This document shows positions 1-31,198 of a DNA stretch of 31,198 nucleotides, in pieces; within the stretch, counting starts at the first letter, position 1, and each line of letters starts with the position of its first letter. A program made the translations under genes and the position numbers. Source of the stretch: an uncultured cyanobacterium (GTDB taxonomy: Bacteria > Cyanobacteriota > Cyanobacteriia > Cyanobacteriales > CAWCAG01). The stretch covers positions 1 to 31,198 of the forward strand of contig CAWCAG010000008.1 in the NCBI GenBank assembly GCA_963793425.1. Direction: 5' to 3'. The notes beneath the pieces are model-generated. The model was given only the letters and a program-made list of their open reading frames with translations, was not told the origin of the DNA and made no database searches.

Positions 1-1547
1 AGTCCCCTTGCTAAAGAAATTGTCGATGAACCCAACCAACAACCTAACTCGACAATTTCTCCCTTACCAGAATATTCATTTTGGGCATAATCTTCTAGAA
101 ATAGTTGTTCTTCCATCGAAGTCATACCTAGTATCCATTGCCTTGGTTGAGTTTTATCTGAATGGGATTCAAAGGACATCACTGTTTCCTCAAAAGTTAG
201 CCCCATGTACTCCCATCTCTGCCTCAGCAATTTTTGATTAATGTCGTCAAGAAATTCCCTTGTCGGTACTTCTAGCTTCTCTGGATATAGGGAAATAGCC
301 TTAAGCAAAGCTTGCGCTAAAGAATAGGCATCTTGAGGTGCAAACCAATGCACACCAAGACTGCGTTCAACCAAATTCAAGGTTTCCTGAAACCCTCCTG
401 CATCGGCAACCACCAAACTCATAGGTAACTGGGCCATTTCTAAAGCTGCATGGGGAAAGTTTTCTTGTTTGCTAGTCAAACAGACAAGGGGAGAATTAAG
501 CTGACGTATCAACTCAATTGCTTCTTGACTAAACAAATCAGTCACAATACTGTATTGATAGCTTTGCCCCAAGGTTTCCTTGATATAATCCTGGCTATCT
601 AACCCCTGCAAACCAGATGTTTGCAACGATACATTCTTACCTAAGAAGATAACCTGGACTTTCTCAGTTACACTGTCTTCTAGTAACTCAAGGGCTTCTA
701 AAAAATAAAGGAGTCCCTTTCTCTCTTCTAACCGCCCGAAGAAAACTACAGGAATTTTGTCTTCTTTTACCAGGTGTTGCAAATCCTCTGTCATCGTCGT
801 TACCGGGGAAGCTTGTGCCAACACAGGAAAACAGTAAGGAAGATGCCAAGCATGGTTAGTTTGCCAACCATATCTTTCTACCTTCTCCTGCAAAAAGTGG
901 GAAAGAAAGAAAGCTAAATCCGCCTGCTCAAAACAATACTGCTCGTAGTGACTAACTTGCCAAAACCACTGGGGATTAACCTGTAAATAACTGCCGTGTG
1001 CCTCCTGTAACCACTCTTGCCCACTGTGCAAAGTAACCGCAACAACGCAATTCTTCCCTAAAATACCAGCCCGTTTAGCTTGAATCGTGCGGTATCCCAA
1101 CCCTAGCATTTCCGGAAATTCTATGTAAATATAAGCATCCTTAAATTGAGTAGCAATTGCTTGGGCAAAAAATAGCGCACCATAATTTTCATACCCTACC
1201 CATTCCCACTCCCGAAACTGAGACAAAATCCCTGAGTGAGTGGAGGGTAACTCCAACACTTCCTCACATTCACTCAAAGAAAAAATCTGGTCAACTACAG
1301 CAATTGTAGATCCCCCACCAAACCTTTCTTTACTCTGAGCTAGCAGTAGTACCACATAAAAATCTGCTGCTGCCAATTTCTCACTAAGAGTACGATAATA
1401 ACTGCCAATACCGCCATTCCTGAAGATACCTTCATATTCAGGAGTAACAAGTAAAGCTATCCGTTTCACTGATGAGGGAACTTTCTCCCTTATCTCCTGT
1501 TTGAATATAACTTTTCCCCAGGATGTTTCTCTACTTGTTTGCTGCAT
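1..1547 (-). CDS. Glycosyltransferase family 4 protein with C-terminal class I SAM-dependent methyltransferase domain (3' end outside window)
   Basis: Not in the ORF track because there is no stop in the window. Manual translation from ATG 1547 gives LLVTPEYEGIFRNGGIGSYY, FFGRLEERKG and ENFPHAALE (GT4 motifs), and near the edge EIVELGCWLGSSTISLARG (methyltransferase motif I). Spot-checked segments are in the same frame. Confidence 0.85.
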   Translation of the reverse strand, partial: MQQTSRETSWGKVIFKQEIREKVPSSVKRIALLVTPEYEGIFRNGGIGSYYRTLSEKLAAADFYVVLLLAQSKERFGGGSTIAVVDQIFSLSECEEVLELPSTHSGILSQFREWEWVGYENYGALFFAQAIATQFKDAYIYIEFPEMLGLGYRTIQAKRAGILGKNCVVAVTLHSGQEWLQEAHGSYLQVNPQWFWQVSHYEQYCFEQADLAFFLSHFLQEKVERYGWQTNHAWHLPYCFPVLAQASPVTTMTEDLQHLVKEDKIPVVFFGRLEERKGLLYFLEALELLEDSVTEKVQVIFLGKNVSLQTSGLQGLDSQDYIKETLGQSYQYSIVTDLFSQEAIELIRQLNSPLVCLTSKQENFPHAALEMAQLPMSLVVADAGGFQETLNLVERSLGVHWFAPQDAYSLAQALLKAISLYPEKLEVPTREFLDDINQKLLRQRWEYMGLTFEETVMSFESHSDKTQPRQWILGMTSMEEQLFLEDYAQNEYSGKGEIVELGCWLGSSTISLARG

Positions 1548-1791
1548 TAAGCTACCCCACCATCAAAACGTCTATTATCTCTTAAATTATTTCTATGGTA
1601 TTTTCGTATTCTAAATGGTTATAACAGGTGAAAAATTTATCCTAGTAACAGGTGGTGCTGGCTATATCGGCTCTCATACCGTACTCCGGCTTCAGCAAAA
1701 AGGTTACAGAGTAATTATCTTAGATAATTTAGTTTCTGGTCATCAAGACCTTGTTGATGAGGTACTAAAGACAAAACTAATATAGCGCTTC

Positions 1792-2331
1792 CTAGTCTAG
1801 TGAGGTACAGTAGCAGCAATGAGTAAACCAATTGCGAATATCGCTTTCGGAGATTTGACAGAAAGCTAACTCAATAGCTCTGGCTAAGTCAGGATAATTT
1901 CTAGCACTGATACCACGTAAAATATTTTTAAGTTTTGACCAGCAATGTTCAATGGGGTTAAACTCAGGAGAGTAAGTGGGAAGATAAATTAATTTAGCAC
2001 CAGTTTCCTCAATCATAGCTCTGATGTTTTCTCCCTTGTGAATAGAGCAATTATCCATAACTACATAAGCTCCGCACCAAAGTTGAGGAACTAATTTTTG
2101 AGAAACAAACGCTTCAAAAGTTACAGTGTCAGTTCCTCCGAGGAGACTACATTGAGCAATAATTTTCTCGAAACTCATTGCCGCAATAACCGAAACATTT
2201 TGACCACGTCGTTGAGGGCGCTCTCCATAAGCTCTTCGACCCTTGATAGAGCGAGCAAATAAACGAACTAAAGCTAAATTAACCCCTGCTTCATCGAGGA
2301 AGATTAAGTTCTTTGCTAATATATTCCTCAC
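1792..2331 (-). CDS. IS630 transposase, DDE catalytic part (orfB; probably joined to orfA by frameshift)
   Basis: FLDEAG, VMDNCSIH and LPTYSPEFNPIEHCWSKLK motifs; the frame is open upstream to the A9 run. Confidence 0.92.
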   Translation of the reverse strand: MRNILAKNLIFLDEAGVNLALVRLFARSIKGRRAYGERPQRRGQNVSVIAAMSFEKIIAQCSLLGGTDTVTFEAFVSQKLVPQLWCGAYVVMDNCSIHKGENIRAMIEETGAKLIYLPTYSPEFNPIEHCWSKLKNILRGISARNYPDLARAIELAFCQISESDIRNWFTHCCYCTSLD

Positions 2332-2368
2332 CCTGTTCCAAAAATCAACGCGAAGATGAAGTACTTTC

Positions 2369-2746
2369 TCAGTTCCTTTTTCTGTGGCCTGTAGAGTTTT
2401 TTTTTCGAGTTAGATTGAGACGACGCAGCATTCTATCTACAGTTGAACGACCAATCACTACTCCAGTTTTTTGTACTAGTTGATGGCGCAGTTCCTCTAG
2501 GGTCGCATCATTGTTTGTTTCCACAAGCTCTTGGAGTACCTTTAACTGAGCAGAGTTTAGTTTAGTCGGAGTTTGTGATTGTCTTTTTTTCGGTGCAATA
2601 TTACCTGTTTCTCTATACTGTTTTAGTAGTTTTTGTACGAAGCTTAATGCTACACGGAATTGAGATGCAAGCTGACGTTGAGATACATTACCTTCGCTAT
2701 AAACCTCAATTATTTTTTGTCTTAGGTCAAGAGAATAAGGTTTCAT
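2369..2746 (-). CDS. IS630 transposase, N-terminal HTH part (orfA)
   Basis: MKPYSLDLRQKII HTH start typical of IS630; ends just past an A9 slippery run (2397-2405). Confidence 0.9.
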   Translation of the reverse strand: MKPYSLDLRQKIIEVYSEGNVSQRQLASQFRVALSFVQKLLKQYRETGNIAPKKRQSQTPTKLNSAQLKVLQELVETNNDATLEELRHQLVQKTGVVIGRSTVDRMLRRLNLTRKKNSTGHRKRN

Positions 2747-2957
2747 GTTATTTTTATGACAAGGAGCTATTGCTCTTCTTACTATACCTCACTAGCTTTG
2801 GAAACGCTATAATAGGCGATATCAGAGATAGCTTACTACTCAAGGAAATATTTGCTGCCCATAATATTGCTGCTGTCATCCACTTTGCAGGCTATGCTTA
2901 TGTAGGAGAATCTGTGAAGCATCCTGCCAGATATTACAACAATAATATGGCAGGAAC

Positions 2958-4122
2958 CAGAAGTGTTGCACGAGGGGGTATTCAGTCTAAAAATAGACAC
3001 ACTACACCTATGTAAAGAAAATACCCTCATGTGAACACTAGCTTTTTAAACCAGTGAACATAGCTAATATGTTCAGTCATAAAAGCTTGTAAATAACGAA
3101 GCTTATCTAACAATTTATTACCAAACTCTTGAGGTATTTTCACCCAAGCTAGTAAAACATAACCAATCAAGCAACTGTATATTTGGATTTCAATTCCATT
3201 GGTGTTTTTAGTTATTAAATTGTCTAGTTTTAGGTGCATCTTAAGAAATTTCCAGAACAACTCTATTTGCCATCTTAAACGGTATAATTCCCCAATTTCT
3301 TGGTTGCTCATTCCCTCTTCACCTTTTTCTGGTAAGTTAGTTGCTAGTCGAAATTCTGTTCTAGTCTCTAAGTCACAAAATACTACTACTTGCTCCTTTC
3401 CTTTGCCCAATATGTAATTGCCATTCTCTAGCATTTGAATGCTTATGTTTTTCTTGATTCTTAATAGGAAGTATTTATTGGTTTCACTTAATAGTGACTT
3501 GATTCTTGACAATCCTGAGAATCCTCTATCCATTAGACTCACTCCATTTTCAGGATTGCCTTCTATGGTATAGTTCCCATACTTGCTGTCATGACCTTGA
3601 CCAAAATGTATCAGTATTCCTTCTGGAGATGATGTTAATAAGTTCAGACCACTGAATAGTTTAACTTGTTTGAATCCTTGCTTCGTTAGCAACTTACTTG
3701 TTAATGTCACTATGGTTGAATCGAGGGGAAATAAAGCTAACTTTCTCTTGTCTATTTTTTTACTTTTGTTTAACTCTTTTCTCAGTTTTTTAAAGAGATT
3801 GTAGAATAACATTGGGTCTCGTTTTTTACTGGCTCTAGAGAATGTTGATTTATCTACCTTTATGCCACGAATATTTAGAGTTTTGAACAGGGATCTCATA
3901 CTTACTTGCCCTTGGTCTAATACGAAACTAAGCCAAGTTGATACAAATAGGAATGTATTCAGGGCTGGGTAATCGTCTTTGGGTAAGCCTCCCAGGTACT
4001 TTTTGACTATTCCAGGAAAGTTTGATACCATCTATTTAACTTTATTATTTGTTTTTGTTGCCTCCATTTTACCAATTTGGAGGCTCTTTTTTACTTTTAT
4101 TTGCTATCACTCAACACTTCTG
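2958..4122 (-). mobile_element. IS4-family insertion sequence
   Basis: Terminal inverted repeats CAGAAGTGTTG (2958) / CAACACTTCTG (4112-4122) around a single DDE transposase; no target duplication visible. Confidence 0.88.
3027..4031 (-). CDS. IS4-family transposase
   Basis: LDSTIV, MDRGF and the YRLRWQIELFWKFLK (YREK) signature. Confidence 0.92.
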   Translation of the reverse strand: MVSNFPGIVKKYLGGLPKDDYPALNTFLFVSTWLSFVLDQGQVSMRSLFKTLNIRGIKVDKSTFSRASKKRDPMLFYNLFKKLRKELNKSKKIDKRKLALFPLDSTIVTLTSKLLTKQGFKQVKLFSGLNLLTSSPEGILIHFGQGHDSKYGNYTIEGNPENGVSLMDRGFSGLSRIKSLLSETNKYFLLRIKKNISIQMLENGNYILGKGKEQVVVFCDLETRTEFRLATNLPEKGEEGMSNQEIGELYRLRWQIELFWKFLKMHLKLDNLITKNTNGIEIQIYSCLIGYVLLAWVKIPQEFGNKLLDKLRYLQAFMTEHISYVHWFKKLVFT

Positions 4123-4347
4123 GATCGCCATACCAATAACCGCCGCTATCTGGGAGGTACGAAGGATAATACCCTCCATCGACCCAACCTTCTATATGTG
4201 GCTCAAAATGAGGTTAACAAGGTGGTGATCGCGGCGGTTTAAAGTCCAATAACCACAGCACAATCTACCCAAACTCACCAAATGTATTACAGGCAAAGAG
4301 AAATCTTGGGCTATGCGATCGCCATGCCAATAACCGCCGCGATCACC
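4123..4347. repeat. Short dispersed HIP1-associated repeat (core AACCGCCGC(G/T)ATC), direct and inverted copies
   Basis: Copies at 4138-4150 (+), 4224-4239 (-) and 4332-4347 (+); further copies at ~5359-5370 (partial) and 5825-5837 (-). Confidence 0.7.
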
Positions 4348-4602
4348 GATGGAGGTTATTTCTGGCAGTTACTCTTCAAGTGTGACTAGTTGTCGAACTT
4401 AATTCAAATGGGTTATGCGATTGCGAATGCTACGGGTCGCGTACAGCAGATATCCTTAGCTTTAGTAACGCAGGCAGTAAGCTGCTTTTAATATTTCCCC
4501 AAGTTCTCCCAAACTCGGTACAGATATTTCTTCTATACTGTCTTTGTTTACTAAAATCTCTGTCTAACATATATTTATCAGTAGTGCATTACTGGTGGGC
4601 TA

Positions 4603-5349
4603 ATGAATAAATCGGAATGGCAAGATTTTTGTTCTAATTTATCTAGGGCCAATGAGCGCTTTGAGAGAGCAGTGCAGGAGTTGGACGTACTAGAACTATT
4701 AAGCATTAGGCGCTTACCTGAAGCTCGGTTTGGTCGAACCAGTCTAGAAGACCACGTGGATTTGTTTTTCTACCACAATAAGAAGCGCCTTGTTCGTCCC
4801 TTCTTGCGTGAAATCAAGAACAATCCGAATCCTCAAACTCGACAGATGATGCGTAGGGAACTCAAGAATTTCTACGGGCCAGCCTCTCGCTATAGCTCTT
4901 CTTTAGATCAGGATCTCTATCAGTACAGAAAGGGTCTTGTTCGTTTGTTACTGCAAGAGTTAGAGAACAGGTCTAATCCTTGCAGACAAATGGTGGTGTC
5001 TGAACTCCCTGAGTGTATCGTTAATAATCCTAATTTAGGGCAAAATATTTACCATTCGGATTTATGTGAATTAGTTGATTGGTTAAAGCACAAAGATACT
5101 TTCGTGCTTATTGTCGTCTGTAGACTCATACTTGATGCTAGGAGCTTACCGCCCTCATTGGCAGAGATTAATAAGAAGGCTGCTAAGGTTCTAATTAAGG
5201 CATTGGAGCAAGGTAATAGGTTAGAGCATCAGTTTGTTGGAGTTCTTGACATTGGCAGAATTCGCAAAAAAGCACTAGGTATTTTGGGAATAAAACCTGA
5301 ATCAAAACCTTTGGTCATCCGTCTCGCACGACAGGAGCCAATGTATTGA
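4603..5349 (+). CDS. Hypothetical protein (248 aa)
   Basis: Long ATG-started ORF; no motif recognised. Confidence 0.65.
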   Translation: MNKSEWQDFCSNLSRANERFERAVQELDVLELLSIRRLPEARFGRTSLEDHVDLFFYHNKKRLVRPFLREIKNNPNPQTRQMMRRELKNFYGPASRYSSSLDQDLYQYRKGLVRLLLQELENRSNPCRQMVVSELPECIVNNPNLGQNIYHSDLCELVDWLKHKDTFVLIVVCRLILDARSLPPSLAEINKKAAKVLIKALEQGNRLEHQFVGVLDIGRIRKKALGILGIKPESKPLVIRLARQEPMY

Positions 5350-16850: not shown

Positions 16851-17810
16851 ATGAGATTTATTAGCCCAAAAACTGACTTTGCTTTCAAAAAGATATTTGG
16901 TTCTAACCAAAGTAAAGGTATCCTGATTTCTTTCCTTAATGCCATCATTTATTCAGGAGATCCTGTTATTCATGATCTAGAAATTATTGACCCTTATAAT
17001 GCTGCTGAGTCAGTGGGTTCTAAAGATAGTTATCTTGATGTTAGAGCAATCTTGCAAGATGGGACTACTGTTATTATTGAGATGCAAGTGTGGCAAGTGG
17101 AAGCCTTTCGACAAAGGATTGTTTACAACCTCTGTAAAACCTATGGTAATCAGCTTGCTAAGGGAGCAAAGTATACTCGTCTTAGCCCTGTTATTGCTTT
17201 AACTATTACTGACTTTAATTTGTTTCCTACTACAGAAGATGTGATTAACTACTTTCACTTCCAGGAAGTAACTAAACATATTTCCTATCTAGAAGATGAG
17301 TTAAGGTTGGTGTTTGTGGAGTTACCTAAGTTTACTAAAACTCTTGAAGAGTTAGAGACTATTACAGACAAATGGATTTACTTTATTAAGGAAGCACCAA
17401 GCTTAGAAGTAATACCAGAAAAGATGAGGGAAGTACCTCAATTAAAACAAGCTTTAGGCATTGCTAACCAAGCTGGCTTGAGTGCTGAAGAGTTGGAAAA
17501 GATTCACCGACAAGAGATGTTTTGGGAGGACAAGAAGAGTGGTTTAAGGTTTGCGGAAAAAGAAGGAGAAGAAAGAGGCATACAAAGAGGTATACAAGAA
17601 GGTAGGCAAGAAGGAATTATTTTGGGGGAAAGAAGGTTTCTTGTGCGACAACTTGAACGCCGTTTAGGAAAGTTGAGTTCGGAGGCTTTTACTGCTATAG
17701 AAAGTTTGGATTCTGCAAGTTTAGAATCGTTAGGAGAAGCGATGGTTGATTTTAAGAGTAGTGAAGATTTGCTTACCGAAGATAATGGGTTTAAAGCCCC
17801 GTCCTTTTAG
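16851..17810 (+). CDS. Rpn-family PD-(D/E)XK nuclease / putative transposase with DUF4351-like tail; last codons supplied by the IS end
   Basis: PKTDFAFKKIFG, LDVRA...IEMQ, FVELPKF and EGRQEG repeats; native sequence stops at the IS boundary 17776. Confidence 0.9.
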   Translation: MRFISPKTDFAFKKIFGSNQSKGILISFLNAIIYSGDPVIHDLEIIDPYNAAESVGSKDSYLDVRAILQDGTTVIIEMQVWQVEAFRQRIVYNLCKTYGNQLAKGAKYTRLSPVIALTITDFNLFPTTEDVINYFHFQEVTKHISYLEDELRLVFVELPKFTKTLEELETITDKWIYFIKEAPSLEVIPEKMREVPQLKQALGIANQAGLSAEELEKIHRQEMFWEDKKSGLRFAEKEGEERGIQRGIQEGRQEGIILGERRFLVRQLERRLGKLSSEAFTAIESLDSASLESLGEAMVDFKSSEDLLTEDNGFKAPSF

Positions 17811-18205
17811 GGCGGCTTTTCTTGATTCTTAATATACTCTTTTAGGACTGATAGCGGCGCACCGCCAACAGAAATAGCAAAATAGCTAGGACTCCACAAC
17901 GACTGCTTGTGGGGTTTTTTAAATCTAGCTTGTCCATAACGACGACTGGATACCCCTTTTAAGGCATTAATTGTTTGAGAAATAGATAATTTAGGTGGGT
18001 ATTCAATCAGCGAGTGAATATGATCTGCTTCTCCATTAAACTCTAAAATTTGAAAATCCATTTTTTTTGCAACGTCTGTAAAGGATTTTTCGATTAAGTC
18101 TAAGCTTTCAGTCGTTAATACAGGCATACGATATTTAGTTACGCAGACCAAATGAATCTTTAGGTCTGTAATACTATGCCTTCCTTTCCGGAATGGGGTT
18201 GTCAT
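17807..18205 (-). CDS. tnpA: IS200/IS605 Y1 HUH transposase
   Basis: HLVCVTKYR, DHIH (HUH), LWSPSYF and YIKNQ. Confidence 0.95.
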   Translation of the reverse strand: MTTPFRKGRHSITDLKIHLVCVTKYRMPVLTTESLDLIEKSFTDVAKKMDFQILEFNGEADHIHSLIEYPPKLSISQTINALKGVSSRRYGQARFKKPHKQSLWSPSYFAISVGGAPLSVLKEYIKNQEKPP

Positions 18206-18256
18206 TTGCTGTAGACCAATATAGTATACAAGTACAGACCAATTGTAGCATTAGCC

Positions 18257-19480
18257 ATGAAAGCTAGATACAAATTCCGTTTCTATCCAACAAGCCAACA
18301 AAAGCAGCTTTTAGCTCAGTTGTTTGGTTGTGTTCGTGTAGTTTGGAATGATGCCCTGGCTATTTGCAAGCAGTCTGAAAAGCTACCCAAAAACGGAGAC
18401 TTGCAAAAAACCTGCATTACCCAAGCCAAGAAAACTGTAGAACGTATTTGGTTAAGTGAAGTTTCCAGTACTGCCCTACAGCAATCCATTGCCGATTTAG
18501 GAGTTGCTTACAAAAACTTTTTTGACTCGTGCAAGGGAAAACGAAAGGGTAGAAAAGTTGGTTATCCCAAGTTCAAAAAGCGCACAAGCGACCAGTCAGC
18601 AAGGTTAACCCGTGGCGGGTTCAAACTCACTGGAGAGAAAGTCTATCTAGCCAAGATAGGAGATATAAAACCTATCTGGTCGAGAGAACTTCCCTCAACT
18701 CCGAGTTCTGTCACAGTAATCAAAGACTGCGCTGATAGGTACTTTGTGAGCTTTATCGTCGAGATTAACCCAAGCAAATTGCCAGATAATAACAAAAGTA
18801 TAGGCATTGATTTGGGTATAACTGACTTTGCCACTACGAGTAATGGAGAAAAGTATAAAGCCCCTAAGCCGTTAAAGCGTCGGCTTAAAAGGCTTAGGAA
18901 GCTGCAACGTAACCTAGCTAGGAAAACCAAGGGTAGTGAAAGGAGAGAAAAAGCCAGAAAGCGGGTAGCCAAACTTCATGCCAAAGTAAAAGATACTCGT
19001 GCAGACTTCCTTCACAAACTGTCTACTAAAATAATCCGTGAGAACCAAACAATTGTTTTAGAAGACTTAAACGTATCTGGTATGGTCAAGAACCGTAAGC
19101 TTTCTCGTGCTATCAGTGATTTAGGTTGGCGTGATTTTAGAACCATGCTAGAAGCCAAATCCGTTATGTATGGTAGAGAGTTCAAGGTAATTAGTCGTTG
19201 GGAGCCTACTAGCCAGACTTGCTCTTGCTGTGGTTTCAGAGGTGGCAAGAAAGAACTCGGAATTAGGAAATGGACTTGTTTAAATTGCGGCGCTGTACAT
19301 GATAGAGACATCAACGCCGCCATAAACATCTTGGTCGCGGGTGGACAATCCGAGACTTTAAACGGACGTGGAGGCAGGCGTAAGACTATCTCGGTAGCAG
19401 CACCCATTGAAGCGTCAACTCGCCAAGAATTCAAACAACGACAGTTGCTTGAATTCTTATTGGAATCCCCGATCCTTTAG
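18257..19480 (+). CDS. tnpB: RNA-guided endonuclease TnpB
   Basis: RuvC motifs GIDLG, VLEDL and DRDINAA, plus a CSCC/CLNC zinc ribbon; all appear intact. Confidence 0.95.
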   Translation: MKARYKFRFYPTSQQKQLLAQLFGCVRVVWNDALAICKQSEKLPKNGDLQKTCITQAKKTVERIWLSEVSSTALQQSIADLGVAYKNFFDSCKGKRKGRKVGYPKFKKRTSDQSARLTRGGFKLTGEKVYLAKIGDIKPIWSRELPSTPSSVTVIKDCADRYFVSFIVEINPSKLPDNNKSIGIDLGITDFATTSNGEKYKAPKPLKRRLKRLRKLQRNLARKTKGSERREKARKRVAKLHAKVKDTRADFLHKLSTKIIRENQTIVLEDLNVSGMVKNRKLSRAISDLGWRDFRTMLEAKSVMYGREFKVISRWEPTSQTCSCCGFRGGKKELGIRKWTCLNCGAVHDRDINAAINILVAGGQSETLNGRGGRRKTISVAAPIEASTRQEFKQRQLLEFLLESPIL

Positions 19481-19513
19481 GGCGGGGAGGATGTCAAGAG
19501 AAAATTTTGGGTA
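19320..19513 (+). ncRNA. Putative TnpB omegaRNA (right-end scaffold + flank-derived guide)
   Basis: Inferred from established TnpB biology; boundaries approximate. Confidence 0.5.
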
Positions 19514-22131: not shown

Positions 22132-23863
22132 ATGGCAATTCTCATCGCGAATATTGGCACTTCTGACCTAGCAATTAAAATTAATAATTACTACATTCCT
22201 GTTGGCTTTGATCGCAGTGAGCCTAACTTAGATAAATCAGGTTTAACTCCGGAAGAAAACCAAACTTGGCGAGATAAAGATAAGCTAGTTGCTGAAACAC
22301 TAAAAGAAGAAATAGGACTTGAGTATAAAGTTGAAGAGAATAGAAAAAAAATACAGTATAAATATTCTTTCCGGGAATTAACAGAAAAACTTTGGCAAGT
22401 ATATCAAGACCAGCCATCTTTGTGGGAACCACGTATTCGCCCTGGTCGTATTTGGGGTGTAATTCAAACTGCACAACTTCAATTTTCTGTTGAAGAAGTT
22501 TATCTATTTGTCACCAATCAAGTAACAGATAAAAACACTCAAGGACACTTTGCTGACTCTTACTATCTTTTTCGTATCTTACAACTTTGGTTTAAAAAAC
22601 AATTACCAAAATTAACTCTCAAAGCAATTACTTTACCTGCTGAAGTACCTGCTAATAACCAAGATGCTCTACTTGACTATTATCATCAATTTTTTAACCA
22701 AAACATAACTAGTTCAGATACACTCCTTCTAAGTACAAAAGGGGGAACTCCTCAAATGCAAACTGCTTTGCAAATTCAATCTCTTTCTTCTACCGCAGAG
22801 AAACAGCTTTTTTTATCGCCGCAGTTAGCAATTAAACGTATTTTAGCTGGTGAATATTCCCAATGCTACTTTCACTTCTTACTGGCGTTATCTTCGTAGG
22901 CAAAAGTATCAAACAGTAAACCAAATTTTGCAACGTTGGGATTTTGAAGGCTCTAGAGAGGTTTTACTTGATTGGCAAAATACTTTAGACTTTTTAAGTG
23001 ACAATATTACCGACGATAGTACTCTTCCCAAGAATAGTAGATTAATTGCTAGTGTTAATCAGAGTTTAGAGTTTGCTTTACGCTACTTTAATTTAGATAT
23101 TAAAGGGGTAGAAAATTTACCCTTAACTGAAGATTTAAAATGGATAAAAGATATTAAAAGTAACTACGACCCTCTACTCAATTTATATACTCAGTGTTGT
23201 ATTTTCTGGAATCTTAACCAAATGGCTAACTTTCTTTCTCGTTTAGGTTCCTTTTGTGAAGAAATCCTTCACGAGTTAATTCGTCAGTTAGGAGGAGAGA
23301 AATATTTTGATAAGCAGTCTGCCCCCCATGATTGGCATTTATGTAAACAAAGAGTAGAAGAAAAGCTTTGGCAGGAGTTTGCTTTGCTAGAACGTAGTAC
23401 TAATTATAGTTTTGCTAGGTGGGACTTTCAAAAGAAACCTCGGTATCGCCTACCAGGACGATTTAGCAAGCGCAATTTTGTTGAAGCACTCGTAAAATAC
23501 CAAGGTAGAGACAATGCAGCTTGGCAAGATATTATTAAATACTTAACCCAGTTAGATTATTGGTTAGAAAAGCGTAATCAATTAATCCACAGTGCTGAAG
23601 GTATCTCAAAAGAAAGAATGAAGAAAATCTTAGCAGAAGATAGAACAAACAATAACAAAAAACCAGACAAATTTAGCCCTAATCCTCACCAAGCCTGTGG
23701 ACGAGATGAAATCTTAACTGTTATGACTATCTTGTTGCAAACCACCTACAAGCTTTTATCTCAGCCCTCTCCTCACCATCTTAACCCCGATGCTCCCTAC
23801 TACATTTATTCCCAAATAGCTAATTGGATACAGCAAAAATTAAAACCAGAAAAACTGGCCTAG
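22132..23863 (+). pseudogene. CARF-HEPN (Csx1/Csm6-like) effector split by a 1-nt frameshift
   Basis: ORF1 has CARF-like IANIGTSD and TKGGTPQM; ORF2 has a HEPN RxxxxH (RNQLIH). Removing one base near TTT 22870-22872 joins them into a 576-aa frame. Confidence 0.75.
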
Positions 23864-24224: not shown

Positions 24225-26231
24225 ATGGTCACAAGTCATTTCTTAATTGGTGTACCTGGTAGTGGTAAATCGACTTTTGCCCAAACCCTAGCCCAAGCAA
24301 TACCTGATGCTGTCATCATCTCCACTGATGCTATTCGTAGTAAATTGTTTGGTCAGGAGGATATTTTAGACCAATGGCCAGAAGTGGAAGCAGAACTGAT
24401 TAAGCAAATGGAAGAGGCTGTAGCTACCCAAAAAACGATTATTTATGATGCTACTAACTTTAAGCGATCGCTACGTTTGGAATTACTGCAAAAGTTAGGT
24501 CGTTTGCAATTGCAGTGGATAGCCTGGTATCTCAAAACTCCCTTAGAAGTTTGTTATCGCCAGAATCAAAAACGCAACCGTCGAGTACCGGAGGAAGTTA
24601 TTGACCAAATGAATAGGTATTTGCGTTCCTTTCCTCCCCACGTAGCAGAAGGTTTTGTCACGGTGAAAGTTATTAAACCTCACCAGGAGAAGTTTGCCCC
24701 TAATGCTATTACTAAGGTGATGGAAAAACTGCCCTTAACTATAGCTACTCGCTCTAGTCGCACTACCCTAAATTCTCATCTCCAACTCCACCAATATTCT
24801 CTTTTAGTAGATTTTGAAAGGTTAATTTACTTAATTTCCTTTCTCATTAACTTTAGCTCCTCTCACCCTCCTCTTTCTGTAGTGGAAATTACTGCCGAGA
24901 TAGGGCAAGAATACGGCCAAGTCTATGCTGATGAAAATGCGATCGCCACTGACTTAGCTTGGTTGGAAAAAAATGGTTTTTGTAACAGCTTAGGAAAAGG
25001 AGAAGCTACTACCCAAGAAATTACCTTAATGCCCCTTGGGGAGCAAGAAATTATTACCCATCAATACTCAGATAGAGAACCCTTCTTACGGCTTCTTGGT
25101 ACTATTCGTTTCCTCATTCATCACCCCTTCACCTACAACTCTGATGCTGGTGGTAGTCTCAACAGTTTGATTGCAGCCCTTAGAGAGGAAGGAATCATTA
25201 CCTACAACTACGCTGATAGAGTTCGTAAAGATATCGAAAAAGTACTCAAGCCCTACGGTATTATGCCCAATCATCCCCAAAAGAAAGGTTACTACGCTGG
25301 AACAGCTATCTTAAGTGAAACGGAATTAAAGCAGGTTTTTTCTGTCCTCCAGTCCCAAGCTGCCAGCTTAAATGACCCTGTGGCAGTAGCAGCCTATCAA
25401 AAACTAGGTGAACGTTTAGGGCTGAGTAAAATCGACCAAGAAAAAGTCTACCCCATTCGTGCCATTGGTACTAGTTCGATTATTGACACTAACCGTTTAG
25501 CAGGTAGCGCCTTACTCAATAAATTAGAAGTGGTGGAAAAGGCTATTTATGCAGGAGAATTATTGGAATTAAAGCCCCTGGCTGGTGGTGGTAGGTTTGC
25601 TAGTGATGAGGAAGAATATTTCCGTGCTTTTCCTTTGCAAATTGTCTTCCATAATTTAGCTTGGTATCTCGGCTATGAAAAACAGCTTGCCAATAAAGAA
25701 ACCCTTTTTAAGTTTCAACGTCTTGACCGTCTTTTTTTGGCTAGGAAGTTAGGTAAAGCTAGGGGGAGAAACAGCACTGAAAAATCCCTTACCAAGTTGC
25801 AAAGACTCTACGAAGCTAGTGCAGGTATTTATTTAGGAGCAACCCCTCAACAGCAACAAGCCTATCTCAGTAGGGATAAAAAGCGCCGTTCCACAACAGA
25901 AACAGTGGTGGAGTTGTGGTGCAATGACTACAGTTTTCAGTTTATCAGCGAAGGAACAAAGCGTTTCCGACCCCAACAGTTAGCTATGTCCCCTGCCCCT
26001 GGTAAGTCATCTTCCCGTATGTTTACCCTCAAGCCTACAGGGGATAAAAAGTTTCCTTATCGTTTTCAGGTTACTTTACCCTCTTGGTCTTTGGATGATG
26101 TTGATTTACTTACCTGGGTAGTTGCTTGGGGAGAAAAAATTAAGGTTATTCGTCCTCAGAAACTGGTTGATTATGTTACTGATTTTGCTATTAATCTTTC
26201 TCAACTTTACGAAGTAGGAAAACAGGATTAA
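24225..26231 (+). CDS. P-loop kinase (AAA_33/PNK-like) - HTH - WYL domain regulator
   Basis: GVPGSGKST, IYDATN and RNRRVPEEVI (kinase); FHNLAWYLGYE...FQRLDRL (WYL); WGEKIKVIRPQKL (WCX). Confidence 0.9.
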   Translation: MVTSHFLIGVPGSGKSTFAQTLAQAIPDAVIISTDAIRSKLFGQEDILDQWPEVEAELIKQMEEAVATQKTIIYDATNFKRSLRLELLQKLGRLQLQWIAWYLKTPLEVCYRQNQKRNRRVPEEVIDQMNRYLRSFPPHVAEGFVTVKVIKPHQEKFAPNAITKVMEKLPLTIATRSSRTTLNSHLQLHQYSLLVDFERLIYLISFLINFSSSHPPLSVVEITAEIGQEYGQVYADENAIATDLAWLEKNGFCNSLGKGEATTQEITLMPLGEQEIITHQYSDREPFLRLLGTIRFLIHHPFTYNSDAGGSLNSLIAALREEGIITYNYADRVRKDIEKVLKPYGIMPNHPQKKGYYAGTAILSETELKQVFSVLQSQAASLNDPVAVAAYQKLGERLGLSKIDQEKVYPIRAIGTSSIIDTNRLAGSALLNKLEVVEKAIYAGELLELKPLAGGGRFASDEEEYFRAFPLQIVFHNLAWYLGYEKQLANKETLFKFQRLDRLFLARKLGKARGRNSTEKSLTKLQRLYEASAGIYLGATPQQQQAYLSRDKKRRSTTETVVELWCNDYSFQFISEGTKRFRPQQLAMSPAPGKSSSRMFTLKPTGDKKFPYRFQVTLPSWSLDDVDLLTWVVAWGEKIKVIRPQKLVDYVTDFAINLSQLYEVGKQD

Positions 26232-26291: not shown

Positions 26292-26411
26292 ATGATTAAG
26301 TTGTTAGAAAAAGCTATTAATCAAATTAAACTGCTACCTGAAAAAGAGCAAAGAAGTTTGAGCGTCTTTGGCGATGGCTTAAAGAAGTCGAAATTTCTGA
26401 TATTTGCTTAA
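26292..26411 (+). pseudogene. Remnant of a small antitoxin-like gene
   Basis: MIKLLEKAINQIKLLPEKEQ resembles N-termini of small cyanobacterial antitoxin-like proteins, then degenerates. Confidence 0.35.
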
Positions 26412-26480
26412 ACAGTGTGAGCGGAAGCTGGCTGTAGGTATCGTAAACAAATAAAAAATAGTACTCGATTTTCAACTAAA

Positions 26481-26519
26481 AAGGAGTATATCAATCAGTT
26501 TGGATTGCATATACTCCTT
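26481..26519 (-). terminator. Terminator hairpin at distal end of array 3
   Basis: AAGGAGTATAT...ATATACTCCTT inverted repeat, followed by a U run on the minus strand. Confidence 0.7.
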
Positions 26520-27066
26520 GTTTTTATTCTGTTAGTTTTTCCGTTATGGAAAAGAGTTAAAAAAGAGCAAGTTGACTCTAGTCAGGCAAGTTTCCATTCT
26601 GTTAGTTTTTCCGTTATGGAAAAGACGGAAAATCGAAGTTGAGTTACTGAACAAAATAAAGTTTCCATTCTGTTAGTTTTTCCGTTATGGAAAAGAAGCC
26701 ATGGATTGTACTCCTTGCCGGACGGTAAGTTTCCATTCTGTTAGTTTTTCCGATATGGAAAAGAGTTGCGAAATCTGCGGGCAAAGCGAAGGCTTCCAAT
26801 GGTTTCCATTCTGTTAGTTTTTCCGTTATGGAAAAGGAGCATAGTATTCATTGCGTATAGCAGAGCTGTACTGTTTCCATTCTGTTAGTTTTTCCCATAG
26901 GGAAAAGGTAATCCGTGCTGAGGTCAGTATTGTTTCCGACACGGAGGAGGTGTTTCCATTCTGTTAGTTTTTCCGATAGGGAAAAGCTTTTGAACAAATT
27001 GCAGATATCAAGGTTCAGTTAATCTTTAAAGTTTCCATTCTGTTAGTTTTTCCGTATATGGAAAAG
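26520..27066 (-). CRISPR. CRISPR array 3: 8 repeats (consensus CTTTTCCATAACGGAAAAACTAACAGAATGGAAAC), 7 spacers
   Basis: Repeats begin (+ coordinates) at 26520 (degenerate), 26590, 26661, 26729, 26802, 26873, 26952 and 27031; leader on the right. Confidence 0.96.
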
Positions 27067-27261
27067 GCTGCCCTCTGAAACCCTTACCCTGACTGCGCTC
27101 CTCAGCGAATTTTCGTGGGATAGCTTTTTAGGGTCAAATAGTTGACACAGATTCTCAATAACGAGAAACTTCACCCACCTCAACCCCTTACTGGGAGAGT
27201 CATTCGCGGGATAGCACGAAATAATGCGGGTTTCAGCGTTTTACAACTTCCCACGAAAGAG
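27067..27261 (-). promoter_or_regulatory. Leader of CRISPR array 3
   Basis: Homologous to the leader of array 2. Confidence 0.8.
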
Positions 27262-27445
27262 GAAGTTATAACGAGCTTTGACTATTATAACTCAATTCAT
27301 AAACTTCAAGCAACCTCTCATCAGCAAAACTGCTTAATTAAGAGCAAATTTAAGCAAAATTTATAAACAATACAAACCAAAATTACTTTAATTCCTTGCC
27401 AGATAAGCGCTACAGCCATTACTCAACCAAATTGACCCCATCATC

Positions 27446-27567
27446 AAGAAAGTTCTCTCCCTAACCTGAAGCTAAGGAAAGAACTTTCCCAGAGTCACAT
27501 CGTTACTTAGAGTAACTTTGTTTTCTTGTATGTTTCCATTCTGTTAGGTTTCCTAGTAATAGGAAAC
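27446..27567 (-). ncRNA. Solitary CRISPR repeat variant + 41-nt segment + long hairpin (candidate crRNA-like RNA)
   Basis: 27532-27567 reads GTTTCCTATTACTAGGAAACCTAACAGAATGGAAAC on the minus strand; hairpin at 27446-27490. Confidence 0.55.
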
Positions 27568-27639
27568 ATTTATAGAATAATGAAAAGAAAAAAGGAAAGA
27601 AATATCATCTTGCTATTGATATTTCCAGCAAACCATGTA

Positions 27640-27954
27640 TCACTCCTTGGGCTTTTTATCTTTACAAAGTTGTCCCCACAAATCTTCAGGAATCTCTTCA
27701 AAATGCTCTAATAAAAAATTCATTACAGCTAAATGACGTAAATCATTGGCAGTAGGGCGACGATAATAACGTCCCTGGCGAAACCAACCTTGCACAGTAG
27801 AACGAGAGCGGTTACAGATTTCAGCCATTTGTTCGTACTTAACACCCCACTTAAAGTAAAACTTTTGAGGAGTCATGCCCAACTCACAGTAACTATAGAG
27901 ACTGATTAGCTCCAACTCTCTGTCGCCAATCCTACGACTCTCACTCATCTTCAA
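27640..27954 (-). CDS. Helix-turn-helix domain protein
   Basis: VKYEQMAEICNRSRSTVQGWF is an XRE-like HTH pattern; overlaps the upstream gene's stop. Confidence 0.8.
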   Translation of the reverse strand: MKMSESRRIGDRELELISLYSYCELGMTPQKFYFKWGVKYEQMAEICNRSRSTVQGWFRQGRYYRRPTANDLRHLAVMNFLLEHFEEIPEDLWGQLCKDKKPKE

Positions 27955-28477
27955 ACCTCTCTAAATCGTACTCCCAAGCCGTATCTACTAAACACCAACG
28001 GGAAGAAAGGGAGTCAGGGTCTAGGAGGATTAGATAGCACCACATCCACCTTCCCGACTCCGGGGCATAGCCATAGAAGCGCCCAATAACCATGCCCCAA
28101 TCTGTTAACTCTGGTTCTTCCAAAGGAGTCCAACGAACAATGGAACCGAAAGGAAACTGAGGAGGAGTAGCATCAAGGAAAAAAGCTGGTGCATCAGAGG
28201 GAAGAGGTAACTGTTGGGCGTGTTGTAGAAACTGGGAAACCACTTCTCCTTGCCCATCGCGAATACTATGGCCATAAACTCGGAAACATTCAGGATGGAC
28301 GGAAACGGTAAGATGCTTAATCAACAAAGTAGCTAAAGTTTCTAAATCTTTAACATCAGATGGATGAGAGTTAATCGTTGCTAGTTTTTGCAATAACTCA
28401 ATGATGCCAAAATCATTCAAGGCTTTGTAGTAGCCCGGAGGTTGTTGAGTTAGATATTTGTGTTGATAGTTGAACAT
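27941..28477 (-). CDS. Hypothetical protein with SH3/KOW-like C-terminal region
   Basis: PQFPFGSIVRW...WGMVIGR...WCYLILLD pattern; overlaps the HTH gene start. Confidence 0.7.
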   Translation of the reverse strand: MFNYQHKYLTQQPPGYYKALNDFGIIELLQKLATINSHPSDVKDLETLATLLIKHLTVSVHPECFRVYGHSIRDGQGEVVSQFLQHAQQLPLPSDAPAFFLDATPPQFPFGSIVRWTPLEEPELTDWGMVIGRFYGYAPESGRWMWCYLILLDPDSLSSRWCLVDTAWEYDLERFEDE

Positions 28478-28546
28478 AGTTTTTCTGTGTAAGGATTGGC
28501 TTCGGTAGGTTGGGTTGAGGTAACGAAACCCAACACCTTAATTGGC

Positions 28547-28810
28547 TTAATGATTGCTGAGAAAGAGGATTAGAATGGTTGCTTTCTCGGCATAGTCCCA
28601 ATAGAAGCGGAGAAACATTGAAGCTGAAGAACCCCAAACCTTCCTATCTTTAAGTCGGTAATAGTGGGTTCGCAAACTTCTGTACTGAGGCCCCTGAATT
28701 GCTAACAGTTGAAAAGCTTTGTAATATTGCTTTTGCCAACTAGGAGCAAGGGTTTTGAGTTGTTTCTTCGCTTTGAGACTAAAAAGTAAAGAAAATTGTG
28801 GTGAAGACAC
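28547..28810 (-). CDS. RelE/ParE-superfamily toxin-like protein
   Basis: 87 aa, basic; LLFSLKAKKQLKTL...YRSLRTH...LRFYWDY...ILILFLSNH follows the RelE/YafQ-type pattern. Confidence 0.65.
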   Translation of the reverse strand: MSSPQFSLLFSLKAKKQLKTLAPSWQKQYYKAFQLLAIQGPQYRSLRTHYYRLKDRKVWGSSASMFLRFYWDYAEKATILILFLSNH

Positions 28811-28828
28811 AGGTAAAAAGTGGTAAAC

Positions 28829-28849
28829 TAGGGGCGCTAAACGCCCCTA
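28829..28849. terminator. Stem-loop after cas2
   Basis: TAGGGGCG / CGCCCCTA inverted repeat. Confidence 0.55.
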
Positions 28850-28865
28850 AGAGTTGAGCGAAAAT

Positions 28866-29144
28866 TCAAATTACAAAAGCTGGGTCATCAACAGAAAACT
28901 CTGGCTGCAAACCTAAGATGAGAACTTGCTTACGGGTACGCTCTGTCAGAGGATAAAACCGCAGTTGGTCTTCTTCTTCGTTAATCAGTTTCTGCAACCT
29001 TCTTTGTAACTTGAGATATTCAGCTTCCTCTGCCATGACTTCAAAAACTGACTTTTGTACCCTCAAGCCATAAGCTTCCAGCAATTTGGCTACCTTATTG
29101 CGACGGCTGTCTTGCACAATGTCGTAGCAAACTAGATAAAGCAT
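28866..29144 (-). CDS. cas2: CRISPR-associated endonuclease Cas2
   Basis: YLVCYDI, RVQKSVFE and DQLRFYPL. Confidence 0.96.
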   Translation of the reverse strand: MLYLVCYDIVQDSRRNKVAKLLEAYGLRVQKSVFEVMAEEAEYLKLQRRLQKLINEEEDQLRFYPLTERTRKQVLILGLQPEFSVDDPAFVI

Positions 29145-29195
29145 AGTAGGTAATAGGTTTTAGTTTTGTCTTCTCCCCAGCTCCCTAACGCCCAA

Positions 29196-31198
29196 TCACT
29201 TCTCCCAAAGCATAGGACGATAGTAGTCTGCATCTCCCATTAAGCAAGTAACGTACTCCCTTACTTGCAACTCTAAGCAGCGACGCAGGGTAACTTTGTA
29301 ACCTGTGTAGGGATGGGTCATTTCACTACGGAGTTTTTCTTCCCAATGTTTGAGGAACTTCTTGAGGGCATCAGGCAGGAGATAAACACCACCTCGTTCG
29401 TCTTGAGGAGTGAAATCTTCAGGAGTGAAGATTTTCTTATTCACCAGGTAAGCCACTTGGGAATCTACAACTTGAGCGCGAAACTCTTCCATTAAGTCAG
29501 AAACTAAGGCAGGATGGTTATCACGGGGGACGTGGAGGCTACCAAAATGGGTATGTAAACCTACAGTTTCAATAAAAGAGTGAACAATCTGACTAAGGAG
29601 GGTGTAGCCTAAACTGAGTAAGCTATTTACTGGGTCAGTGGGTGGACGTTTGCTACGATGCTCAAAGGTAAAACTAGAGTTAAACAGAGAACCCAGTCCC
29701 CGGAAATAAAGCTTTGCAGCATTACCTTCATAGCCTCGTAAGGAATCTAAAGATTCTGCTAGGGGTAAGTTATCAATAATTTGGGCAATTTCATTGATGG
29801 CAATAGTTGCACATTCACTCCTACGACGACGGTTTAAACGCATAAGCAGAACACGGGAGTTATGTAACTTCGCCCTAACAATAGTTTCTGCTTGTTGACG
29901 GGTAAATTCTGGGTCTTCAGCACACCTAGTTTGCTGTGCCAAGTAAGCCACCTTGGCCTGTCCTTCTGTTTCCAAACGACCGAAGTAACGACCCCTTTGG
30001 GAAAGATACAGGACAGGGATGCGCCGGGATAAAGCTAGTTTGATTGCGCCGTGGGTAATGTGGCAACAACCAAAGAGAATAATCTGACTAACCCGGTTGA
30101 CGGGGACTTGACAACGTAACTCACCGTGGAAAAAGATCCGGAATTGGTAGTTTTGCGCCCTTAACAGGGAACCTTGTTCGATTAGATAAAGAGTAGTCAT
30201 TTCTTCTGCAAAGTAGTATTTAGGGTTAATAAGAGTTGGTACAGAAGCCTGTTTCTGTAAGTTGCAAACCTTGGGAGGACGGGAGAGAAAGGAATGAATG
30301 TAAATAGGTCGGGGTTTGCGGGGTACACCAGAGGGATCTAGGATTAACTTTCCTTTGCTAGGAAGTCGGGGGGGTGGTGCAAACACCTTGCCTTGGCGAA
30401 ATTGGTAGCCAAGAAAGGTAAACTCTTCTTCTGGGGAGAAGATGCGGGTTTTCTCTGGTTGGAGGTTGAGGAATATCTTTCTTACCCAAATAGCTAGTAA
30501 GCTTAAGGTATATTTAGCTTCTTCTAGGCTCGAACAAGCTACGACAAAGTCATCACCGTAGCGAACAAACTTGATGCCATTACTAAGGCAACTATGGTCA
30601 AATTCGTTCAGATACAAGTTAGCTAAAGCACCGGAAAGGATTGAACCTTGCAAAACCCCTTTTTTAGGGTAGAGACGGCGACCTTGGATAACAATGCCTG
30701 ATTTGAGTTGTTGCCCAATCAGTTGTAGAATAACTTCCTCAGTTTCCATCTGCTCCAACGCAGCTAGTAGTAGAGCTTGGCAGATACTATCAAAGAAGTT
30801 AGCAATGTCAGATTTAATCACCCAACAAGGCTGCATTTGGTAGTAGAAGTAGAAGTGTTTGACAGCGATTTGAATACCACGGTTAGGGCGATAGGCATAG
30901 CTGCAATCAGCAAACTGTTTTTCTAAAGAGAGATAAATTTCCTCTAGCAGCCACCTTTGGACTATGCGGTCTTTAACTGTGGGTATTCCTAGTAAGCGTT
31001 GACCACCATTGCGTTTGGGAAGATAGAATCCTCTAGCTGGGCTAGGAAAATAGGTTTCTTCTCCTAACTGTTGTTGCAGGGTCTTGAGTTGCTCTGTGGC
31101 AACCCCTGCAAACAGGTCTGTAGTGATGCCATCAATTCCTGGGCTACGACTTCCTTTGCGAACCAAGTTCCAAGCATATTTAAGTTCAGGAAATGTTA
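29196..31198 (-). CDS. cas1: Reverse transcriptase-Cas1 fusion (5' end outside window)
   Basis: Group II intron-like RT motifs (PGIDG, LGIPTVKDR, QGSILS, RYGDD, FLGY) fused to Cas1 (TLYLIEQG, RGYEG, NSLLSLGY, DLMEEFR). The frame is open to the window edge. Confidence 0.95.
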   Translation of the reverse strand, partial: TFPELKYAWNLVRKGSRSPGIDGITTDLFAGVATEQLKTLQQQLGEETYFPSPARGFYLPKRNGGQRLLGIPTVKDRIVQRWLLEEIYLSLEKQFADCSYAYRPNRGIQIAVKHFYFYYQMQPCWVIKSDIANFFDSICQALLLAALEQMETEEVILQLIGQQLKSGIVIQGRRLYPKKGVLQGSILSGALANLYLNEFDHSCLSNGIKFVRYGDDFVVACSSLEEAKYTLSLLAIWVRKIFLNLQPEKTRIFSPEEEFTFLGYQFRQGKVFAPPPRLPSKGKLILDPSGVPRKPRPIYIHSFLSRPPKVCNLQKQASVPTLINPKYYFAEEMTTLYLIEQGSLLRAQNYQFRIFFHGELRCQVPVNRVSQIILFGCCHITHGAIKLALSRRIPVLYLSQRGRYFGRLETEGQAKVAYLAQQTRCAEDPEFTRQQAETIVRAKLHNSRVLLMRLNRRRRSECATIAINEIAQIIDNLPLAESLDSLRGYEGNAAKLYFRGLGSLFNSSFTFEHRSKRPPTDPVNSLLSLGYTLLSQIVHSFIETVGLHTHFGSLHVPRDNHPALVSDLMEEFRAQVVDSQVAYLVNKKIFTPEDFTPQDERGGVYLLPDALKKFLKHWEEKLRSEMTHPYTGYKVTLRRCLELQVREYVTCLMGDADYYRPMLWEK

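Follow-up and report, generated by a model that had tools for sequence, protein, structure and literature searches.

The stretch of DNA analysed here, referred to below as the window, is the entire contig C8 (31,198 bases) of a 5.28-Mb cyanobacterial genome bin. On its plus strand lies a type III-B effector set of the CRISPR kind, made up of Cmr2/Cas10, Cmr3, Cmr4 and Cmr6 and interrupted by insertion sequences, and a repeat search places three CRISPR arrays in the window. At the right end of the contig the minus strand carries, in order, a reverse transcriptase (RT)-cas1 fusion, cas2, open reading frames (ORFs) of 87, 178 and 104 amino acids (aa), a lone CRISPR repeat, a leader and an array. 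The main subject is the gene for the 87-aa protein, here called relE87, which encodes a small protein of RelE fold and is found tied to cas2 throughout its known range. A first-pass annotation, made from the sequence alone, had read the three ORFs as a trio of RelE-like, SH3-like and helix-turn-helix (HTH) genes at 27640..28810, downstream of RT-cas1-cas2 and ending at the lone repeat; these coordinates and this order are correct. The features of the locus are as follows, with lengths of nucleic acid in nucleotides (nt).

29196..31198, minus strand: RT-cas1 fusion gene, its 5' end lost at the contig end; Pfam RVT_1 (2e-32) and Cas_Cas1 (1.3e-89), TIGR00287 cas1 (9.2e-94)
28866..29144, minus strand: cas2; Pfam CRISPR_Cas2 (1.6e-25), TIGR01573 (6.1e-21)
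28828..28850, minus strand: G+C-rich 10-bp hairpin within the 55-nt gap between cas2 and relE87
28547..28810, minus strand: relE87, 87-aa protein of RelE/YoeB/YafQ fold
27941..28477, minus strand: 178-aa ORF, SH3-like candidate
27640..27954, minus strand: 104-aa HTH ORF (102 aa from the ATG)
27582..27626, minus strand: A+U-rich hairpin followed by a U-rich run, just past the HTH stop (from a fold of 27500-27639)
27532..27567, minus strand: lone 36-nt CRISPR repeat variant, ending in the 8-nt tag ATGGAAAC
27067..27355, minus strand: array leader (~290 nt), delimited by blastn of the window against its own genome
26515..27066, minus strand: CRISPR array of 8 repeats, repeat family D3; the minus-strand reading gives repeats ending in ATGGAAAC

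By its conserved, non-random association across taxa, relE87 is a cas-linked gene. A family-alignment scan with one genome per species gives 52 relE87 loci, nearly all labelled cyanobacteria, and in every one of them cas2 lies immediately upstream on the same strand. Visible in 50 of these loci is cas1 as well, the contigs of the other two starting inside cas2. Between the cas2 stop and the beginning of the relE87 family model lie 36 to 427 nt (median 133.5). At least one CRISPR array is found in the flanks examined at 46 of the 52 loci and a reverse transcriptase at 24, the flanks being short. The first-pass annotation had proposed a CRISPR linkage, to be given up if homologues proved not to be enriched near CRISPR loci, and had called for a neighbourhood check against RT-Cas1. 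The homologues proved more than enriched there: each of the 52 loci has its copy directly behind cas2, so the condition set for giving up the linkage does not refute it.

The distribution of the family outside this survey can be outlined from several further searches. In a cas2-anchored sample, which is no clean ranking, the matches listed include 43 loci that are mostly cyanobacterial, 16 of them with relE87 behind cas2, and 37 that come mostly from other phyla, 0 of them with it. An even sample of the phylum has the family in 21 of 401 genomes and 13 of 156 genera. No relative occurs in 50,697 phage records, and on plasmids relE87 occupies seven places, in six cyanobacterial plasmids. Both plasmids that were inspected carry RT-cas1 or cas1, then cas2, relE87, in some cases the SH3-like gene, and HTH, all beside Cmr genes; relE87, SH3-like and HTH genes are annotated there without exception as 'hypothetical protein'. 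Gloeothece verrucosa PCC 7822 has the same relE87/SH3-like/HTH trio as the window. The family, with its invariant motifs, spans Nostocales, Oscillatoriales-type and Chroococcales-type genomes.

The gap between cas2 and relE87 has features of its own. The hairpin at 28828..28850 folds as RNA at -16.6 kcal/mol (z -4.55), a stability equalled by 0 of 200 shuffles, and strong hairpins also fill this gap in Oscillatoriales-type loci, e.g. L097, L098, L110 and L119. The hairpin may be a partial terminator or a processing site. Nostocales-type loci carry in the gap a conserved block, GCACGCGCTCCACC ... CGCTTTCGGTCAA.TTTGGATATTCGGAAAC, seen in 19 of the 52 loci (e.g. L100 5864-5994 and L124 1313-1447) and absent from the gap of the window. 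By eye, the block in L100, L117, L124 and L125 holds a micro-ORF frame of about 27 codons that ends at the relE87 start; in L103, L108 and L138 the frame is broken by a stop. A pattern search for the micro-ORF in the cas2-relE87 gap, with a pattern that was too strict, matches 1 of 52 loci, and no coding claim is made. The Nostocales-type block may encode a mini-antitoxin or a leader peptide, or may act as an RNA element.

The RelE fold of the relE87 protein (compact beta-alpha-alpha-beta3/4, about 85-95 residues), which the first-pass annotation had suggested, is well supported, because distant relatives match ParE, YafQ, HigB and YoeB and because Arg68 is invariant and His87 nearly so in a joint alignment of the family with these relatives. 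A profile search of 1.84 billion representatives yields only 35 proteins at E<=1e-3, of which 7 reach E<=1e-10. Scanned against Pfam, 32 of the 35 (three short ones omitted) give weak ParE/YafQ/HigB/YoeB matches in 17 cases, and the ParE_toxin cut-off is reached by 4. The family proper, 81-111 aa in length, has R44, R47 and H49 invariant and an invariant motif of its own, YRSLRTH. R44, R47, H49, R68 and H87 are what we take to be the residues that an active RelE-type site would keep. The protein is most likely a small endoribonuclease, with catalysis predicted. The window protein matches 0 Pfam families at E<=0.1, as do the 4 closest representatives scanned; the family has no match in NCBIfam (none at E<=1) or among PADLOC models; and a sequence search of solved structures returns nothing relevant for the single protein or for the family profile. 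At the level of sequence comparison, membership of any named Pfam family is thus not supported.

The genes that follow relE87 have a separate origin. The SH3-like/HTH pair, usually with a third gene, MTY, is a cyanobacteria-wide cassette that lies mostly outside CRISPR loci. The HTH family comprises 207 relatives at 90% clustering in a word-index search and 476 loci in species genomes, and 26 relatives compared across orders are about 55-87% identical to the window protein. Against Pfam the 104-aa protein gives sub-threshold hits to HTH_23, HTH_17 and Sigma70_r4_2, the best being HTH_23 at 17.4 bits for a cut-off of 24.6; its structure neighbours in the Atlas fall in XRE/HTH_3 clusters at template-modelling (TM) scores of 0.47-0.55, no more than a lead. 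In the set of 80 loci closest to the HTH of the window, cas2 lies directly upstream in 19, with relE87 as well in 16 of these, and 61 have no cas gene within 2.5 kb. The SH3-like gene precedes HTH in 38 of the 80, and MTY follows it in 67, cas-linked or not (e.g. L038 8587-8751 and L125 6999-7181). The MTY protein, of about 55-90 aa, has the N-terminus M-T-Y-x-E-Q-L-x-P-W-C and no Pfam match. Counted over the 52 relE87 loci, HTH is present in 47, MTY in 33 and an intervening SH3-like gene in 8; the module of the window is without MTY. The trio as a single module, as the first-pass annotation had it, therefore does not hold, given an SH3-like gene in 8 of 52 relE87 loci and an HTH cassette not cas-linked in 61 of 80. 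Its description of an undescribed CRISPR-linked module survives for the relE87 family, absent from Pfam, NCBIfam and PADLOC, and fails for the three genes as one unit.

The 178-aa protein is an optional partner of the HTH gene. It has a helical N-terminal half and a candidate C-terminal small beta-barrel (SH3/chromo/Tudor-like, residues about 103-178); a peptide-pattern scan with this protein alone found no relative, and the genome and word-index searches did yield relatives. Where a relE87 locus has both genes, the SH3-like and HTH genes overlap in 7 of 8 (by 8 nt in the window), and the relE87-to-HTH gap is 10-374 nt (median 108). Two further loci of the same genome carry the cassette. Contig C5 (L013 7460-8704) has a 304-aa SH3-like/HTH fusion followed by a 73-aa MTY; a natural fusion of this kind is an argument for joint action of the SH3-like and HTH proteins. 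The neighbours of the fusion look, by eye, like housekeeping genes, with long ORFs resembling secD/secF and others. Contig C6 (L014 7248-9044) has cas2, SH3-like (101 aa) and HTH (106 aa) genes behind a cas1 broken into ORFs of 155 and 103 aa; close by, the opposite strand encodes a separate RT-cas1 (657 aa), and neither relE87 nor a repeat occurs within the 15 kb examined. Among the matches listed in the cas2-anchored sample are 5 further loci in which HTH, with relE87 missing in front of it, overlaps the cas2 stop; HTH is thus linked to the adaptation operon in its own right.

HTH-MTY is also carried by conjugative cyanobacterial plasmids, 16 in the plasmid search. In Nostoc cf. commune plasmid pANSO36B (L228 4819-7796) it follows a gene annotated 'bifunctional 3'-5' exonuclease/DNA polymerase', a neighbour that recurs in the Nostoc chromosomal loci L038 and L056. 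Ten aligned Nostocales-type loci share a conserved block between HTH and MTY, TTGTCAATA...GACCTGT, which the window is without. The operator-like block TTGTCAATATC, found between HTH and MTY in relatives, has 16 matches in the window at <=2 mismatches for 10.3 expected, none of them near the module. A quick maximum-likelihood tree was built from 89 non-redundant HTH sequences, 50 of them cas-linked and 39 unlinked, after removal of duplicates and of envelopes shorter than 70 aa. Along it the 'cas-linked' state changes only 3 times, against 24-33 times in ten shuffles. Labels run in kin groups and sampling differed between the two sets, so the tree is read as few recruitment events and not as co-evolution. 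The HTH of the window comes from the cas-linked branch of this widespread family.

The lone repeat is part of the relE87 module and closes the unit. In the window it is identical to the array repeat over its final 16 nt, ATGGAAAC tag included, and its stem differs yet still pairs. Such a repeat lies within 700 nt past the last gene in 29 of the 50 relE87 loci with room for one; 21 are without it and 2 more loci lack room. Its position is narrow: of 21 relE87 loci with MTY, 20 have the start of the repeat between -7 and +10 nt of the MTY stop. Within the set of 80 HTH loci, 10 of the 18 cas-linked ones with room have such a repeat and 0 of the 59 non-cas ones do, a count that doubles as the chance control for its detection. 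Compared with the arrays of their own loci, lone repeats have a mean identity of 0.67 (26 loci). The common form is GACTTC-loop-GAAGTC-GAATTAATGGAAAC, then a partly conserved A-y-C-T-G-C-r-T-T-T-A-G. An array lies 400-600 nt past the lone repeat in the window, L097, L099 and L106, and upstream of cas1 in most other loci. For the 40 nt past the repeat, exact seeds of >=9 nt on the sense strand reveal no complementarity within the respective locus that exceeds shuffled controls, in any of the 26 loci searched. A covariance model of the lone repeat gives 573 matches, mostly array repeats; lone copies rank top by construction, and the counts were not used. The passages of Shmakov 2023 (PMC10120712) on standalone repeats describe those of type III loci as not conserved in place and probably debris or degraded remnants. 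To the view set out there, the lone repeat of relE87 loci is an exception.

Other signals at the locus are fewer. The hairpin at 27582..27626 is weakly terminator-like, weakly because a consensus scan calls no minus-strand terminator there. That scan, for promoters and terminators, finds sites no more frequent than in shuffles, and none accounts for the unit. Rfam has no match at E<=1 over 26400-29200. The stretch is present in 4 DNA contig runs of one study, with no RNA dataset among those listed. The leader at 27067..27355 has 82-90% identity to the leaders of 3 other arrays in the same genome. Between relE87 and the 178-aa gene (28478-28546) lies an imperfect hairpin, GTTGGGTT...AACCCAAC, of ordinary folding energy (z -1.23), which presumably resembles the short dispersed repeats of filamentous cyanobacteria. 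Positions 27031-31198 of the window recur at 99.4% identity (~4.2 kb) in contig C2 at 560-4726 (locus L012). There RT-Cas1 is complete (669 aa, 2724..4733), and the array upstream of the leader has the same repeat and different spacers. Either a single locus entered the assembly twice, from strain variants, or the duplicate is very recent.

Elsewhere in the window, the plus strand has a pair of overlapping ORFs, of 255 and 337 aa, between arrays at 22132-23863, the first with a faint Csm6-CARF match (E 0.01); together they may be one frameshifted CARF-type accessory gene. Between two arrays at 24225-26231 lies a gene for a 668-aa protein with an N-terminal AAA_33 (polynucleotide-kinase-like) match and weak WYL and WCX matches, a candidate kinase-WYL regulator of the type III locus. 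Past the Cmr genes, at 16851-19480, come a gene for an Rpn-family nuclease and a tnpA-tnpB pair of IS200/IS605; contig C9 holds a copy of the tnpB stretch 17773-19497 at 100% identity. The relE87 module of Anabaena cylindrica also has Rpn genes beside it.

Several known systems resemble the module in part. With the RelE/YoeB/YafQ messenger RNA interferases, ribosome-dependent members of the RelE/ParE superfamily, relE87 has its fold in common. It differs from them in having no Pfam or NCBIfam model match and no sequence-detectable solved structure, in its own YRSLRTH motif, in ending at the conserved His, in standing always behind cas2 and in having no antitoxin gene upstream in the window. 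The first-pass annotation had remarked on the lack of a classic upstream antitoxin; this is right for the window and overlooks the toxin-first order of HigBA, which the 87-aa/HTH pair mimics. A RelE-fold gene is indeed followed by an XRE-like HTH gene in 47 of the 52 relE87 loci. Unlike HigBA, the two genes are uncoupled, at gaps of 10-374 nt, HTH is missing in 5 loci, the context is fixed and not mobile, and the HTH family occurs mostly without this toxin and has its own partners.

In type III systems, RelE-fold RNases are known as CARF fusions, namely cluster 3 of Shah 2018 (Csm6-RelE; part of PMC6546367) and Cami1, and the relevant sections of the 2025 classification paper (PMC12669027) mention RelE only as an effector activated by cyclic oligoadenylate. 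In contrast to the CARF-RelE effectors, relE87 encodes a single RelE-fold domain of 87 aa with no CARF sensor, and it adjoins adaptation genes, not effector or signalling genes; cyclic-oligoadenylate control is therefore not expected. Csx18, in the descriptions given in parts of PMC6546367 and of a ribosome-profiling preprint on Synechocystis (10.64898/2025.12.20.695498), is a small adaptation-associated protein next to cas1-cas2 in cyanobacterial III-B/III-D loci, and relE87 too encodes a small protein beside cas1-cas2. The two are unrelated in sequence: hhalign of relE87 against slr7091, named Csx18 by RefSeq, gives a probability of 0.04% (E 0.91). The positions also differ, relE87 being downstream of cas2 whereas the pSYSA annotation puts Csx18 upstream of cas1. 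TIGR03984 (170 positions), which we took to be a possible Csx18 model, matched nowhere, control genomes included, and is uninformative. CreTA and crRNA-like RNAs (those like CRISPR RNA, crRNA) share with the present locus a repeat variant that stands apart from the array, in a constant position of the cas locus and beside a toxin-type gene. Here, however, there is a single repeat, the locus is of type III, no target is detected within the locus and the toxin candidate is a protein, not an RNA.

The account we favour, though we hold it a little short of probable, is that the relE87 product is a RelE-type RNase, kept under regulation and dedicated to the adaptation operon of type III systems; HTH would regulate or neutralise it. 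The gene is a dedicated satellite of the cas1-cas2 operon in cyanobacterial type III-B (Cmr) systems, many of them with RT-Cas1, and would be transcribed at the tail of that operon. Downstream stands a specialised HTH branch, with or without the SH3-like partner and MTY, and then the lone repeat. HTH may restrain relE87 as a repressor, perhaps as a direct neutraliser, in the manner of toxin-first HigBA, and the activity of relE87 might be tied to the adaptation module, guarding against its loss or damping translation during spacer uptake. What the analysis shows is the RelE fold with its invariant basic and His residues, the exclusive position behind cas2, the HTH gene that usually comes next, the separate origin of the HTH cassette and the conservation of the lone repeat; RNase activity, control by HTH and the physiological role are inferences. 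A number of observations weigh against this account. In 5 of the 52 loci an intact relE87 with all conserved motifs has neither HTH nor another small partner downstream, which is awkward for an obligate antitoxin. Unlike most type II pairs, relE87 and HTH are not translationally coupled, given the wide range of the gap between them. Nor does HTH look like a dedicated antitoxin, being highly conserved, mostly without relE87 (61 of 80 loci not cas-linked) and paired with MTY in 67 of 80. The strict linkage to cas2 is unlike that of mobile toxin-antitoxin pairs. The window protein has Tyr at position 50, where at least 90% of the family have Arg50, and it stops at His87 without the C-terminal residues that distant relatives have past the conserved His. 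The partnerless relE87 genes, the loose spacing, the independent HTH family and the fixed context together favour the chief alternative, a direct role in adaptation.

Such a direct role is possible, though doubtful: as an RNase, relE87 would cleave transcripts of the invader or those bound by ribosomes, or would trim prespacers of RNA or RNA-DNA for (RT-)Cas1-Cas2, in type III systems without Cas4. The linkage to cas2 in all 52 loci and in 13 of 156 genera sampled speaks for it, as do RT in the flanks of 24 loci, the RT-cas1 that directly precedes cas2 in the window, and the survival of relE87 without HTH in 5 loci, as expected of an enzyme and not of an unguarded toxin. That cyanobacterial loci of this kind carry RT-Cas1 and a separate Cas1, as stated in passages of Toro 2017 (PMC5541045) and Silas 2017 (PMC5513706), is counted on the same side. 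Yet 28 of the 52 loci have no RT in their flanks, short as these are, and relE87 is missing from 27 of the 43 mostly cyanobacterial cas2 loci among the matches listed, so adaptation does not need relE87. We also know of no RelE-type enzyme that produces defined fragments, which is counted against a direct role. Held as loosely is a broader version, an unrecognised extension of the adaptation operon in which the RNase would make or select RNA-derived prespacers, or couple uptake to translation arrest, and the lone repeat would be functional as a Cas6-cut 3' end or crRNA-like regulator.

It is unlikely that relE87 is catalytically dead and serves, as a RelE-fold adaptor or co-repressor with HTH on leader, repeat or operon DNA, to set transcription of cas1-cas2 or of the array. 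Toxins of type II pairs do serve as co-repressors, the C-terminus is truncated at His87 and R50Y is found in the window, the lone repeat and leader lie directly downstream, and the overlap of HTH with the cas2 stop in 5 loci without relE87 (among the matches listed) suggests a CRISPR-related DNA-binding task of HTH; but the invariant R44, R47, H49, R68 and H87 are residues to be expected in an active RelE-type site, and no operator motif was found, TTGTCAATATC having no match near the window module. Somewhat less likely again is that an ordinary type II toxin-antitoxin pair of the selfish sort, or what remains of one, came to lie behind cas2 in a single event and has since been passed on together with it, serving no CRISPR-related function. 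A passenger of this kind would be expected elsewhere too, yet 0 of 52 loci lie away from cas2 and none in phages, the 7 plasmid places are confined to 6 cyanobacterial plasmids, both inspected ones showing relE87 behind cas2, and the motifs are invariant across Nostocales, Oscillatoriales-type and Chroococcales-type genomes. In its favour, the loci are rich in insertion sequences and occur on plasmids, the SH3-like/HTH/MTY cassette is found on conjugative plasmids as well, and toxin-antitoxin genes are, in the relevant part of PMC10120712, frequent in CRISPR neighbourhoods. The least likely explanation is a CreTA-like safeguard, in which a Cas6-cut lone-repeat RNA loaded into Cmr would silence relE87 or another toxin, and loss of the effector or Cas6 would free it. 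The repeat is conserved in position (29 of 50 loci, and at the MTY stop in 20 of 21), occurs in 0 of 59 non-cas HTH loci, and keeps its hairpin and 8-nt tag despite divergence from the array repeats (0.67), with partly conserved bases following. Against such a safeguard, the 40 nt past the repeat show no complementary match above shuffled controls in 26 of 26 loci, there is one repeat and no mini-array, 21 of 50 loci have no repeat, and type III standalone repeats are judged degraded remnants in the portion of PMC10120712 devoted to them.

To our knowledge, RT-Cas1 type III systems have no nuclease partner comparable to Cas4, and how they choose and prepare RNA-derived spacers is a question on which relE87 may bear. 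Found only behind cas2 in at least 52 species-level genomes, it is a concrete candidate for such a partner and is testable in culturable carriers, e.g. Anabaena cylindrica PCC 7122 and Gloeothece verrucosa PCC 7822. The papers searched on CRISPR adaptation, type III systems, RT-Cas1 and standalone repeats yielded no stand-alone, cas2-tied RelE-fold family; cluster tables in the supplements to Shah 2018 and Shmakov 2018/2023, which lie outside that search, might list it unnamed. A guarded toxin, if that is what relE87 encodes, would be a protein-based counterpart of the CreTA safeguard, placed on the adaptation module rather than on the effector. The lone repeat contradicts the view, put forward in the relevant pages of PMC10120712, that type III standalone repeats are mere debris, and if functional it would be the first standalone repeat in a type III system with both a conserved position and a function. 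If the adaptation operon does have an unrecognised extension here, relE87 would deserve a cas or csx name. At minimum, three families now annotated 'hypothetical protein' can receive names.

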